Part shown: one piece after another, positions 48,201 through 54,200 of the stretch
How the letters are laid out: each line of letters starts with the position of its first letter
Numbering within the stretch: the stretch's first letter is position 1
Assembly: GCF_003790525.1 (NCBI RefSeq)
Contig: NZ_CP033636.1
Reading direction: 5' to 3' (one strand)
Source: Escherichia coli
Lineage (GTDB): Bacteria; Pseudomonadota; Gammaproteobacteria; Enterobacterales; Enterobacteriaceae
Length of the DNA stretch: 64,000 nt
Made by a program: the position numbers

Positions 48201-51200
48201 AACGTGATTGAATGCGATCATGGCAAACTGAAACGGATAATCAACGCCACGCTGGGATTTAAATCCATGAAGACGGCTTACGCCACCATCAAAGGTATTG
48301 AGGTGATGCGTGCACTACGCAAAGGCCAGGCCTCAGCATTTTATTATGGTGATCCCCTGGGCGAAATGCGCCTGGTAAGCAGAGTTTTTGAAATGTAAGG
48401 CCTTTGAATAAGACAAAAGGCTGCCTCATCGCTAACTTTGCAACAGTGCCCTTCTGGTTTCATGTTGAACAAAGAAGACCCTTTAGCTTCTGTAATCCAT
48501 TTAATCAGTCTGAATGAAATAGATTATAAATTCTGCTCTGCATACCTGCTTAACCAAAGTCTCATGATTCTGATTGTCGGTACAGTGCCTGAATGTGGCA
48601 TATCTGGGAGGTGCTGTACCCTGTTGCATCTGCCGTTTCTTTCTTGACCTGCCGGTAGTAAAGTACCTTTTGATGCCGTTCCTGAGCGACCTGTTTTCCC
48701 TGATATTTACCCAGCGTATGTGCGAGTTCAACTCCCTGCTTTTGGCGCTGGCGGTCAATTTGCTCGACCAGCAAAATATCATTGCGGTGACTGTCCATCA
48801 GTAAGCGACCCAGTTCCGGTCGGTCAAGTTTTGTACCGCTGATATTCTCCCGGTAGTAACTGGCTATTTTATGCCCCCGCTCCTAAACAAACTGCTCCAG
48901 CATCTCTTTTGCCCGATCGGTGAACTGATCTTCCGTCTATGCCCTTAAATAAGTGCTGATGAACATTTTTTCACCGCATTACCGCATTTAGGTTATTGCA
49001 TTTAATCTATCGCATATAGGCTATGTCGTTCATTGTGTGCCGTCACGTTTAGATTATGGTGTCAGGGTATACCCTTATGCGATAACCATTTTTGTTAAAA
49101 ATAACGCATCGAATAATTTATGAGGAAAACTATATGGCAAGGAGGCAGATTCTTTCTCTGTCGGAAAGAGAATCATTACTGGCATTACCGGACGATGAGT
49201 TAACGCTGACCCGAATGGCCTATTTCAGTGAGCATGATCTGGCGCTTATCAGTGCTCACCGTAAACCCGCCAGCCGTTTTGGTTTTGCCGTCCTTCTTTG
49301 CTATCTGAAAAATGTCGGCTTTGCCCCGGATAAAAAAATCTCTCCCTCTGATGCGCTGCTGAAGCATATCGCCAGCAGGCTAAAGCTTACCGGGGATCTC
49401 TGGCCTGCTTACCTTTCCGGCCGGGATACGACCCGGCGTGAGCATTTAACCGAACTGTACCGCTATCTTGGCGTAAAGGCGTTCACCGGCAAAATACAGC
49501 AGGACTGTATTACGCACCTGTTATCGATGGCGACGCGCACCGATAAAGGCATTCTCCTAGCCGAAGAGTTACTTGTCTATCTCCGGCAGAACAACGTGAT
49601 AATCCCCGCGATTGATGTCGTGGAGCGTACCTGTGCTGAAGTCATGGCAGGCGGCGATAAAATCGTATTTCAGACCCTGAATGCCCCGTTAACTCCGGCT
49701 CACAGGGATGCCCTGGATCATTTACTTGAGTCATCAGATAATCAGCCTTCCAGGCTGACATGGCTTCTGCAACCGCCGGGTAAAATCAATGGTAAGAACG
49801 TGCTGCAACATCTTGATCGGCTCAGCAGCATTGAATCGCTGGCATTACCTGAAGGTATAGATCGTACCATTCACCAGAACCGGTTGCTGAAACTGGCGCG
49901 GGAAGGCCGAAAGATGAGTAGCCGGGATTTGACCCGATTTTCAGCTGCCCGGCGTCATGCGATCCTGGTGTGCGTGCTGGAAGAAGCCAGAGCCACACTG
50001 ACAGACGAAGTGATTGAGCTGCATGAGCGAATGCTGAATAGTCTTTTCAGCAAAGCCAAACGAACACAGGCTGAGCGCCTTCAGCAGACCGGAAAGCTGA
50101 TCCAGTCAAAACTGAGGCAGTACATCGATGTCGGTCAGGCGCTGTCTGATGCCCGTGATTCCGGTGGCGATCCCTGGCTCGCAATAGAAAACATACTCCC
50201 ATGGGCTGAATTTGTCGCCAGTCTGGATGAAACACGCCATCTCGCCAGAAAAAATAATTTTGACCCGCTGCATATTATTACCGAGAAATACAGCACATTA
50301 CGGAAATATGCCCCACGCATGTTGTCCGCTTTACAGTTAGTCGCAACCCCGGCAGCGCAACCTCTGGCTGATGCACTGGTTGTGATCAAGGATATGTACC
50401 GGAAGCAGTCACGTAAAGTTCCGGCGGCAGCGCCGCTTGAGTTTGTCCCTGAAAGCTGGCGCAAGGTGGTGATTACACCTGTGGGTATTGACCGGCAGTA
50501 CTATGAGTTTTGTGCACTCAGCGAGCTTAAGGGGGCGTTGCGCTCCGGGGATATCTGGGTTAAAGGCTCGCGCCGCTACAAAAATTTTGATGATTACCTC
50601 ATACCCGAGAAGGACTTTGACAAACTCACACCGGCACTGCCACTGCCCGTATCTGCTGATTATCATGAGTACATTACCAGCCGTATGACCCTGCTTCAGT
50701 CCAGACTTGAAGAGGTCAATGCCATGGCTGCCCTTGGTGAACTGCCCGATGTGGAAATATCCGACAGGGGCGTAAAAGTCTCTCCGCTGGATAACTGCGT
50801 TCCGGCGCAGGTTTCACCGCTGGCAGAGCTGGTTTACAGCATGCTACCGCGACCTAAAATCACGGAAATTCTCGATGAGGTAAACAGCTGGACGACGTTT
50901 ACCCGACATTTTTCGCATATAAAAAATGACATTACCCGTCCCGATACCCGCTTGCTCCTCACCACCATTCTTGCGGATGGCATCAATCTTGGCCTGACCA
51001 AAATGGCAGAAGCCTGCCCCGGGAGCACCAAATCATCACTCGAAGATATTCAGGCATGGTACATCCGTGACGAAACCTATTCAGCCGCTCTTGCAGAGCT
51101 GGTAAATGCGCAGGGGAAAAGACCGTTGGCGGCATTTTGGGGAGACGGAACAACGTCATCATCAGATGGACAAAATTTCAGAACCGGCAGCTCAGGCCGC

Positions 51201-54200
51201 TACGCAGGGCAGGTTAACCCGAAATATGGGCAAGAGCCTGGACGTCAGTTTTATACCCATATTTCGGATCAATACAGCCCGTTTTACACCTGCATAATCA
51301 GTCGGGTCAGGGATTCAACCCATGTTCTCGATGGCTTGCTGTACCACGAAAGCGACCTGGAAATCAGGGAACATTACACCGATACCGCTGGTTTCACCGA
51401 TCATGTCTTTGCCCTGATGCATCTGTTGGGATTTGCGTTCTGTCCGCGAATCAGGGATCTCCACGACAAAAAACTGTTTATCAAAGGGAAAGCAGAGAAA
51501 TACCCGGCGCTTCAGTCACTGATATCAACGACCAGCCTGAATCTGAAAGAGATCGAAATCCACTGGCGTGAAGTGCTGCGTCTGGCAACCTCGATAAAGC
51601 AGGGAACCGTGACGGCATCCCTGATGCTGAAAAAGCTTGCCAGCTATCCCAAGCAAAACGGACTTGCCAAAGCACTGAGAGAAATTGGCCGCATTGAGCG
51701 AACCCTGTTTATGCTCGACTGGTTCCGCGACCCGGCTCTGCGTCGGCGGGTACAGGCGGGGCTGAATAAAGGCGAAGCCCGTAACGCGCTGGCGCGTGCG
51801 GTATTTATGCACCGACTGGGAGAAATCAGGGACAGAAAACCGGAAAATCAGAGCTATCGCGCCAGTGGACTGACGCTGCTGACGGCTGCCATATCCCTGT
51901 GGAATACCGTCTATATGGAAAGAGCGGTCGATGCCCTGAAGCGTAAAGGGGTGAAGATCAACGAGCAACTGCTGTCGCATTTGTCGCCGTTGGGCTGGGA
52001 ACACATCAATCTGACAGGTGATTATATCTGGAAAAGCAACCGGATACCGGCTTCTGGTAAGTTTCGTCGGCTAAGACCAGCTAAAGTCGAAAGGTCAAAA
52101 AACAGCCTTAACGTACAATAATTTTCGATATCCAAACTGACCCCGAATACAAGGACAATGCCGGTACCGCCTGATTACTTCTGGCGTCGTCTACAATGTT
52201 ACTCCAGGCATATGCTGCGTCGTCCGGGGTTTGTTTTGGATCTATGTCCAATGTCGGCCAGACGTGGCCCTGATGATTCTTGCCCTTTGTACAGGAAGTG
52301 ATTAAGTGTACTGAGCGTTCAGAGAACATTATCTTCCTTACATACCCATAGAACAGCTTTCTAAGAACGGTGGGCTCGGCTGAAAATTACAAATCAGCCC
52401 CTTTCACGGCATCATTTTGATTCTTCGCGTCTGCCCCAGTAAGATGACCGGTTTTCTGCATGACAGTGTTATTCCTAACAAACGCAACACAAAACCACGC
52501 CAGCCAGAGCAAATTTTTTCATTTGCTGCGTAAAGCCTATTGTTTTCTCTTTTAAGCTTCGCCCACTCGTTACAGAGGGTAACATCATCAAGCGCTGTTA
52601 TATGCTTCGCCTCACCTTCGACGATAACGGTATGGATACCGTATGCTGTAAATCTCATACTATTTTCCAGAACCCAGTTGCGGTATTCGTCGAGTCCACC
52701 TTCGGAACCGGTAGCTCTGCGCCACATTTCAATTTGCTTGTGTGATGGGTCAAGTGTACTTGTCATTGAAGCCTCGTCTCAGCGATAACGCTTGAAATAG
52801 CCCGCTTTGGTCATCATGAAATTAGCCATCTGACTGGCGATTTGATTGTATCTTACTCATAGTGCCCTACCTATAGGTTAAAAAGGGGCATTTTCGCTTT
52901 ATAGCGTGTTCAGCAGCATCAATCCTCCCAAGAAAGGCTGGCTTATTAAGCCGGTCCATCATTTTCTGTATATCTCTCATCAATTTTTATATCCGCCCTG
53001 GAGTGCACCGTTCAAGCACACCGATTAGGCAGATAGTCACTAGTTAACTCTTTACTAGTGACTAAATTCCATTGATATACGTGACAACGTCACGTCATGA
53101 AAGCTTTTAAATGCCTATTTTTCATACAATGGGATTTAATTAGGAGTAAATCCCATAGGCTTACATAAGGATGACAATTAAAAGCGTTAAATATCAACCA
53201 GATAGAATGATTACCCCCAATTAATGGGCTCATCACATTATTTCACTGGCTGGGGTTATTGCTGGCATATCTGAAAGTGCTAATATGTTAGTCATTAGTA
53301 ATTAGTAAAGCCTTTACTAAACGCGTTTCTACGTAATTTCTATAGGTTTTATAGTGTCCTACCTTTGCTCAAATCAAAATGTTCTGACATACCAAAATGG
53401 AGTGTAAAATGACTCAAAACCAGGGTTCTGAGCCAGTACCGGCGAGCCGGACAGGGCAGCTCATCAGCGCCCGGGATATGGCCATGCAGAAATTCGAAGA
53501 AGGGATGCGGTTAATCTCGGAAGCGTCGGAACTGTGCGGTCTCTCTCTCTTCACCAGCAGAATTATGCAGCCCAACGCATTTGGTCTTCCGTCGTCACTG
53601 GATCGCACCATCGAGGAGGGGCGTAAGGAAATTGACCGTAAAACGTGGAAAAGGCTCTTTGAAGAAACAGGTATGGACCGGTACTGGAACCATAAGCAAA
53701 AAGAAGCCTTTAACGAATCCCTTCGTACGGATCCGCCCGTCGCTTCCCTGGAGATTGTTAAGGGAACATTACAGCATGCACTGGCTAACAGACGAGACAC
53801 CCTTGCAGAAGGTTTCGTTGATGTTCTCAACAAGCTTGACCGAAGTTTCAAAAGCAATGCCAGGCAATATACAATGCCAAAAAAGCTTGTTCTTCGGGGG
53901 ATTTTTCCTGGTGTGAACGTGCTGAGGTACAACGGTTTCTCGCAGGACAATCACTTTTGTTTACGCGACTTTGAGAATATTGTATGCATCTGTTCTGATA
54001 CTCCAACACCTGCAACCGGCGGTGGGCTGAGTATGGTCGACAGGCTGACGGCCATGAGAAATACAGAATTCACAGGCGAGGTCAGTGATGAGAATGGCTG
54101 GCGGTGTCGCCTGTTTGAGAATGGAAACGTTCATATTTGCATCGACAGTATCTCGCTTCTGAATGCTCTGAACGATCTTATCAGCATATATTTTGCAAAC

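Follow-up and report, generated by a model that had tools for sequence, protein, structure and literature searches.

The window (the whole 64,000-nucleotide stretch of DNA that was analyzed) contains, at the right-hand limit of an IncHI2 plasmid's resistance region, a truncated IS1, an arsR/SmtB-family gene, a permease gene, an IS26, a tnpR pseudogene, a presumed res region, an intact tnpA and a single terminal inverted repeat, which abuts an interrupted gene of the plasmid backbone (Table 1). We consider it very probable that these features are the right-hand remnant, some five kilobases, of a Tn3-family unit transposon of the TnEc1 group, with the insertion history proposed below.

Table 1. 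Features of the transposon remnant and its surroundings (positions in the window)
Feature	Position	Strand	Basis or remark
IS1 fragment, 614 of 768 bp	45384..45997	-	Internal passenger; cut by the Tn2 IRR ending at 45383
arsR/SmtB-family regulator, 107 aa, cargo	46044..46367	-	NF033788, 63 bits (cut-off 55); PF12840, PF01022
ArsP_1-family permease, 377 aa, Cys/Ser-rich loop, cargo	46473..47606	+	PF03773, E = 5.7e-53
IS26, later simple insertion, outside the transposon	47631..48450	+	8-bp duplication CTTCTGGT at 47623-47630 and 48451-48458
tnpR pseudogene, serine resolvase	48562..48966	-	Aligned codon by codon to the intact tnpR of pChi7122-2 (213 aa)
tnpR-tnpA intergenic region, presumed res site and divergent promoters	48967..49133	.	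TATCGCAT-type repeats; identity to relatives
tnpA, intact Tn3-family DDE transposase, 995 aa	49134..52121	+	NF033527, PF01526, PF13700
IRR, 38-bp true terminal inverted repeat GGGGTCAGTTTGGATATCGAAAATTATTGTACGTTAAG	52107..52144	-	One exact site; chance expectation 0
Target, 5' portion of a disrupted DUF6884-family gene of the IncHI2 backbone (intact product 221 aa)	52145..52329	-	Collinear with the insertion-free plasmid L012

The original prediction of a Tn3-family element with a complete tnpA holds. The tnpA product matches NF033527 along its full length (positions 2-954 of 954; 1129 bits, cut-off 500) and PF01526 with E = 5e-148, in addition to PF13700. The gene has no lesion, and dN/dS values of 0.06-0.08 against three relatives are those of a coding sequence under purifying selection. 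TnpA is 97% identical at the amino acid level to TnpA of a Tn6901-type element of 6,901 bp in pFJMB80381_1 (L009) and 91% identical to a protein labelled "TnEc1 family" by PGAP, with one shared 90% cluster that includes the Tn6901-type TnpA; the name TnEc1 was reached through the labels of the members of this protein cluster. As judged by TnpA and the terminal repeats, the element belongs to the TnEc1 group, which comprises TnEc1, Tn6901/Tn6399 and Tn7489.

Divergently from tnpA, the minus strand carries tnpR from an ATG at 48966-48964 to a stop codon at 48564-48562. In a codon-level alignment to the pChi7122-2 gene and an alignment of four sequences, codon 10 (48939-48937) is changed from TCA to TAG, which replaces the catalytic Ser, and codon 28 (48885-48883) from CAG to TAG, while in-frame deletions of 222 bp at 48754/48755 and of 12 bp near 48639 leave the gene 74 + 4 codons short of the intact one. 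Thus, the divergent resolvase is broken and internally deleted, as had been proposed, and the alignment to intact relatives that was suggested as a check identifies a pseudogene; however, its pieces are not scattered over several frames but share one reading frame, which is interrupted by two stop codons and shortened by two in-frame deletions. The residual ORF of 78 aa has no Pfam match. Identity to relatives is 77-82% in the 3' part of tnpR versus 83-94% in the 5' part, a difference that hints at a mosaic origin. The intergenic region shares 89-91% identity with its counterparts in L002 and L009, two intact relatives, and 78% with that in a Rahnella copy (L003), and it contains, as does L009, direct and inverted copies of the motif TATCGCAT(A/T); it is presumed to be a res site with divergent promoters. 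A functional resolution module of resolvase and res is therefore absent, as tnpR is dead and only the res-like region is kept.

The same transposon is complete in other plasmids, including pCP131-IncFIB and pF138-2, in which it measures 6,394 bp and has a perfect IRL beyond IS1. The order is IRL, a 269-bp spacer, IS1, arsR, the ArsP_1 permease gene, dead tnpR, res, tnpA and IRR. Target duplications of 5 bp were assessed on these complete copies, the window copy having no left end, and are present at three independent sites: TATCA in L015, AATAA in L016, and AACAG in pPSS-04_1, where an accreted copy of 32.8 kb has matching AACAG flanks. We found at least six distinct outer flanks at IRL and at least five at IRR. 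Outside IS1, the copies are ~99.95% identical, and L015 is 100% identical to positions 48451-52144 of the window. L015 and L016 have an intact tnpA and tnpR lesions identical to those in the window. Transposition after the death of tnpR is, as far as can be read from these sequences, well supported. It is improbable that the lineage is instead an inert fossil that IS26, IS1 and plasmid recombination alone have spread, with its own transposase idle since tnpR died: although its spread among Inc groups has taken place largely alongside IS26-rich resistance regions, the dead tnpR occurs in all three insertions that have matching 5-bp duplications and together with many distinct flanks at both ends, and tnpA is free of lesions and has low dN/dS values.

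We suggest only tentatively, and think it rather unlikely, that the 6.4-kb parent is an unnamed cargo transposon of the TnEc1 group that has gone on moving although it has no working resolvase; in that case it would have to rely on host recombination or the resolvases of resident relatives. Tn3 tnpR mutants form stable cointegrates and have derepressed tnpA. By analogy with Tn3 and gamma-delta, cointegrates formed by complete copies without resolvase would need host RecA or the resolvase of a resident relative, and loss of the TnpR repressor may raise tnpA expression. Unresolved cointegrates of the 6.4-kb element could, by the same analogy, help to fuse plasmids; several of the carriers are multi-replicon plasmids (IncFIA+IncX1, IncHI1A+IncN and IncFIA+IncFIB). 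The one-ended copy in the window would be unable to move as a two-ended unit, and its TnpA could work in trans on elements whose ends match or produce rare one-ended events.

The regulator and permease genes, previously regarded as possible passengers, are cargo because the 5-bp duplications enclose the complete 6,394-bp unit, with its IRL beyond IS1, at three independent sites. The arsR/SmtB-family HTH regulator is encoded divergently from the PF03773 permease; no NCBIfam equivalog cut-off is reached, and the permease has weak similarity, below the cut-offs, to Cu/Zn and SaoE efflux transporters. It is very unlikely that this pair is merely neighboring DNA beside the landing site of the transposon. 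The same module does adjoin arsH in IncF plasmids that lack any TnEc1 sequence, the homology to those plasmids ends at the permease stop codon (47607), and there is no relic of an IR between permease and tnpR; in a search for a decayed IRL in this interval, the local alignment score was 8 versus a shuffle mean of 9.1, and 447 of 500 shuffles scored equally well or better. However, in the complete copies IS1 and arsR have IRL on their left, so that the arsR-family gene sits between IRL and tnpR, and the duplications surround the whole unit. The ~125 bp between permease and tnpR were seen only in this lineage. IS1 lies inside the transposon without a target duplication, its flanks being ...ATCATGCG and CGATGCAG..., and its end ...ATCAGTAAGTTGGCAGCATCACC meets CGATGCAGC at 45997/45998, a junction common to L004, L011, L015 and L016. 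It may be that the arsR-permease pair was not captured as original cargo but was joined to the IRL side through an IS1-mediated rearrangement. The IS1 variant in the window differs from the IS1 of the available complete copies.

The cargo and tnpR are now separated by an IS26 of 820 bp with GGCACTGTTGCAAA ends and 14-bp terminal repeats, flanked on both sides by CTTCTGGT and sharing 100% identity with three further copies in the window; it lies directly to the left of the start formerly assigned to the element, 48459, and had been left out. This duplication has been reported before (PMC8920835). A seemingly perfect inverted repeat of 827 nt, possibly the shared flank of two IS26 copies, was rejected because its seven extra bases do not match (cccggaa versus the expected ccagaag); ungapped extension and rounding had produced it. 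The idea that the adjacent IS26 damaged tnpR and removed the left end is scarcely credible: the region is abutted by an IS26, and the window has six copies of it, but this copy caused no deletion, as is evident from the perfect 8-bp duplication that flanks it, and L004, L015 and L016, which are free of this IS26, agree with the window both in the tnpR lesions and in the permease-tnpR junction. This junction is likewise uninterrupted in pPSS-04_1 and others.

The right end of the transposon is precisely defined. First, the IRR overlaps the tnpA stop codon and has the 38-bp form GGGGTCAG...ACGTTAAG. Second, it is identical to the IRL of L011, L015 and L016 and to the IRR of the 6,901-bp element in L009 (38/38), and matches the IRL of the latter at 37/38 positions; when the two ends of L009 were compared, the similarity between ends extended inward to ~50 bp. 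Third, 52144/52145 is an exact break in homology for all relatives and for IncHI2 plasmids without the insertion, with homology stopping at 52144 in ~3,900 plasmid records. The limits originally predicted, 48459 to 52391 with a terminus at a GGGG-type 38-bp repeat ~270 bp past tnpA, can practically be dismissed: the minus strand at 52364-52401, which we take to be that candidate, does begin with GGGG, but it matches the true IR at only 15/38 positions, every relative's homology is lost at 52144, the tnpA stop codon lies within a canonical GGGG...ACGTTAAG repeat, as in Tn3, and the end at the GGGG-type repeat is refuted because the candidate, like everything from 52145 onward, is backbone present in the transposon-free IncHI2 plasmids L012 and L013 (37/38).

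The absence of a partner repeat had been recognized correctly. In the 64-kb window, a search of both strands allowing up to three mismatches, and then down to 22/38, returned no second site of at least 25/38; the best other sites, at 23-24/38, are at chance level. Paired ~38-bp repeats (GGGG...TAAG) are thus found at both ends of the complete copies elsewhere, while the window copy has IRR only; the matching repeat that was to count against a one-ended element exists in other plasmids and not in this window. A search of the literature with the IR sequence gave no matches. An IR-like site (26/38) that abuts the tnpR end in pChi7122-2 (L002) is possibly a degenerate IRL of a cargo-free relative and is uninformative for the window.

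What the window copy lacks is the first 461 bp of the transposon, i.e., IRL, the spacer and 154 bp of IS1, position 462 of the element in L015 aligning to 45384. The IRR of Tn2 (IR at 45346-45383) ends inside IS1, and an IS26 in turn cuts Tn2 at 43796/43797. The far end was therefore lost on the IS1/Tn2 side, as had been proposed; however, IS1 did not remove it, because IS1 rides inside the complete transposon. At the other end, the insertion-free L012 is collinear with the window from its position ~5001 onward and has the target gene intact at 4520-5185, with a match to PF21818. We propose that the junction 52144/52145 arose when a copy of the transposon entered this DUF6884-family gene in an IncHI2 plasmid, and that Tn2 next inserted into the IS1 carried by the transposon. 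A deletion associated with IS26 would then have eliminated both the left part of Tn2 and the transposon's first 461 bp, and another IS26 would have landed later between permease and tnpR, generating the 8-bp duplication. No PLSDB record contains the junction predicted on the left (backbone ...TTACCTGAATA, then IRL); the original two-ended insertion and its GAATA duplication are thus inferred rather than seen. In three Serratia plasmids, the two halves of the TTACCTGAATA/IRL junction lie ~450 bp apart and represent a different insertion.

These findings bear on annotation. The right edge of the IncHI2 resistance region is a Tn3-family transposition junction in a backbone gene, not an IS26 boundary, and the arsR-permease pair is to be assigned to the transposon. 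The transposon itself, dead in resolvase and with complete copies at several sites in different plasmid types, is a naturally occurring case of a Tn3-family element that spreads with no resolution function of its own.

The element in the window is a known remnant that has already been described. pNDM33-1 matches positions 47000-54000 of the window at 100%, and the "ΔTnEc1" of pNDM33-1-type IncHI2 plasmids, reported with IS26 upstream, is the same DNA (PMC8920835); in the portion of that paper available to us, the account of ΔTnEc1 does not include the tnpR lesions, the true position of the IR or the arsR-permease pair as cargo of the parent. TnEc1 has the same divergent arrangement of tnpR, res and tnpA. 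The terminal repeats of the TnEc1 group are described as near-identical, and the IRR in the window is likened to that of TnEc1 in ISfinder by this description only. TnEc1 is described without cargo, whereas the element studied here has IS1, arsR, the permease gene and a dead tnpR, and its window copy has no left end. Tn6901, which equals Tn6399a (Rts1), and Tn7489 are formaldehyde-resistance transposons. The 6,901-bp element in L009 resembles ours, beyond its TnpA and terminal repeats, in having its cargo in the same place, between IRL and the 3' end of tnpR; it differs in that this cargo is frmR-frmA-gloA-frmB, tnpR is intact (211 aa) and there is no internal IS1. Tn3 and Tn1000 (gamma-delta) are only distant relatives in sequence, but they likewise end in 38-bp GGGG...ACGTTAAG repeats, one of which includes the tnpA stop codon, and have tnpR and tnpA divergent around res as well as 5-bp target duplications. 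The known features of the Tn3 family are unchallenged by our findings.

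Here, we establish the anatomy, boundaries and lesions of the TnEc1-type element and the evidence for its past mobility. The original prediction was largely correct but erred in its choice of terminal repeat, in its right boundary and on the reading frames of the resolvase.

Features of the transposon remnant and its left neighbors in the window
Feature	Coordinates	Strand	Description
Tn2 remnant	43797-45383		tnpR 3' part, blaTEM-1 (44376-45236), IRR (45346-45383); left part cut by IS26
arsR-permease module	45998-47607
IS26	47631-48450		820 bp; directly left of the originally predicted start
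tnpR remnant	48966-48562	-	ATG to stop
tnpA	49134-52121	+	995 aa, full length; annotated start ATG 49134, stop 52119-52121 (ORF list and sequence)
IRR	52107-52144		final 15 bases of tnpA and 23 bases beyond; reads CTTAACGTACAATAATTTTCGATATCCAAACTGACCCC

Several lines of evidence define the right end. First, the IRR, which on the opposite strand reads GGGGTCAGTTTGGATATCGAAAATTATTGTACGTTAAG, is canonical for an end of the Tn3 family and encloses the tnpA stop, and its sequence occurs once in the window versus zero times expected by chance. Second, in thousands of plasmid records homology to the element ends at 52144. Third, from 52145 on, the window and element-free IncHI2 plasmids are collinear, and in those plasmids this position falls within an intact gene for a 221-aa DUF6884-family protein. 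The element had been predicted to extend to 52391, with a GGGG-type repeat ∼270 bp past tnpA as its end. The GGGG-type sequence taken to be this candidate (52364-52401) matches insertion-free plasmids at 37/38 positions and the true IR at 15/38; because of the collinearity, its stretch is IncHI2 backbone, and both the repeat and the boundary are ruled out.

As predicted, tnpA is intact. Its match to the Tn3 transposase equivalog is full-length (1129 bits), and it contains DUF4158 and DDE_Tnp_Tn3 domains. Because its dN/dS versus three relatives is 0.06-0.08, the same range as between intact elements themselves, tnpA looks functional at the sequence level. A 1009-aa ORF from TTG at 49092 is a mechanical reading only.

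The resolvase-like coding sequence lies upstream of tnpA on the opposite strand. Alignment with the intact 211-215-aa resolvases of pChi7122-2, a Rahnella plasmid and pFJMB80381_1 confirmed that tnpR is decayed: codon 10 is TAG, replacing the catalytic serine of YLRASTEDQ, codon 28 is also TAG, the catalytic domain has lost 74 codons (222 bp) at 48754/48755, and the C-terminal helix-turn-helix lacks 12 bp. As both deletions preserve the frame, no frameshift is present, and the predicted fragments in several frames do not exist. Across the 5' part and the tnpR-tnpA spacer, identity is 89-94% with the two closer relatives and 78-84% with the Rahnella copy; across the 3' part, identity with relatives drops to 77-82%, which suggests a mosaic history. 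The spacer contains repeated TATCGCAT-type motifs, present also in an intact relative, and is presumably res. Past the tnpR stop of pChi7122-2, by 8 bp, lies only a degenerate IRL-like sequence (3528-3565, 26/38), and the Rahnella relative shows none; many family members may be one-ended.

On the left, the IS26 next to tnpR has identical 8-bp flanks CTTCTGGT (47623-47630 and 48451-48458) which mark it as a simple insertion without loss of DNA; once it is removed in silico, permease and tnpR meet at a junction that ∼250 plasmid records contain without interruption. Immediately past the Tn2 IRR, 45384 aligns with position 462 of the complete element, and Tn2 thus inserted into the transposon's internal IS1. 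The window lacks the initial 461 bp of the element (IRL, spacer and 154 bp of IS1), and the predicted backbone-IRL junction had 0 records in PLSDB. Tn2 itself is interrupted in tnpR by IS26 at 43796/43797. IS26 occurs six times in the window (14714-15533, 26842-27661, 38121-38940, 41721-42540, 42977-43796 and 47631-48450; four copies identical, two at 99.6%). A 435-bp fragment with an IS26 copy on either side holds the 5' end of a serine recombinase gene (42831-42976, MIIGYARKSTHLQDV...), cut by IS26 at 42977. In the Tn2 tnpR, 19 nt (44101-44119, CAGAAGGGCACTGGTGCAA) are complementary at 18/19 positions to 48438-48456, the IS26 right end with its CTTCTG flank, probably by chance (roughly a few percent for a 16-kb region). 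Another element is represented by two Tn3-family-type repeats (GGGGTCGTTTGCGGGAG...CTACGCTAAG) at 32444-32481 (-) and 34592-34629 (+), which face outward in opposite directions, ∼2.1 kb apart.

A search of the 64-kb window found no second IR, in agreement with the original prediction, and no IR relic was found between the permease and tnpR. The arsR-permease module also occurs in IncF plasmids beside arsH without any transposon, which at first argued against its being cargo. In plasmids of several types, however, the same arsR-permease-tnpR-tnpA unit has a complete IS1 on its left and differing DNA past IRR, and a scan of carriers identified a perfect IRL in pCP131-IncFIB, pF138-2 and one IncX1 plasmid, separated from IS1 by 269 bp. 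In pCP131-IncFIB and pF138-2, the complete transposon spans 6,394 bp; its flanks are TATCA in one of these two and AATAA in the other. In pPSS-04_1, 32.8 kb separate IRL from IRR, and AACAG flanks both; this copy is the same transposon enlarged by Tn1721 and other insertions. Outer flanks are of at least six kinds at IRL and at least five at IRR, and the two compact complete copies have identical tnpR lesions, intact tnpA and three differing positions outside IS1. Altogether, the IRL beyond IS1, the matching 5-bp flanks, their variety and the common lesions indicate that the arsR/ArsP_1 pair is transposon cargo, as had been proposed, and that the transposon moved repeatedly after tnpR died. 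Because the IS1 lacks a target duplication and the 269-bp spacer elsewhere is the leader of a SulP-transporter cargo, the present arrangement probably arose by IS1-mediated rearrangement. Plasmids of Citrobacter and Enterobacter have this IRL and spacer in front of other genes (SulP transporter, universal stress protein, thioredoxin-family protein, permease and sigma factor), suggesting alternative cargo modules in the TnEc1 group. Solitary IR copies (36-37/38) near toxB in pO157-type plasmids (5005-5042 in one, L008) and in ∼100-kb Yersinia pestis plasmids look like old scars of this group.

By analogy with Tn3 and gamma-delta genetics, the one-ended window copy would be incapable of normal transposition, and its TnpA could work in trans or yield one-ended events. 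In complete copies, cointegrate resolution would have to depend on RecA or a resident relative's resolvase, and TnpR loss may derepress tnpA.

As a transposon remnant, the locus is ordinary and has been described before. PMC8920835 reports a ΔTnEc1 with IS26 upstream and the same 8-bp duplication in blaNDM-5 IncHI2 plasmids akin to pNDM33-1, and pNDM33-1 matches 47000-54000 at 100%. Compared to pJH51-1, the window lacks a ∼13.5-kb blaNDM-5 segment (junction near 37388-37394), and its source thus seems to be an NDM-negative relative of pNDM33-1-type plasmids. The 90% protein cluster of TnpA includes proteins labeled 'Tn3-like element TnEc1 family transposase' by NCBI (91% identity). TnpA is also 97% identical to that of a 6,901-bp element with both IRs, which corresponds to Tn6901/Tn6399a and differs in carrying its own cargo, frmR-frmA-gloA-frmB.
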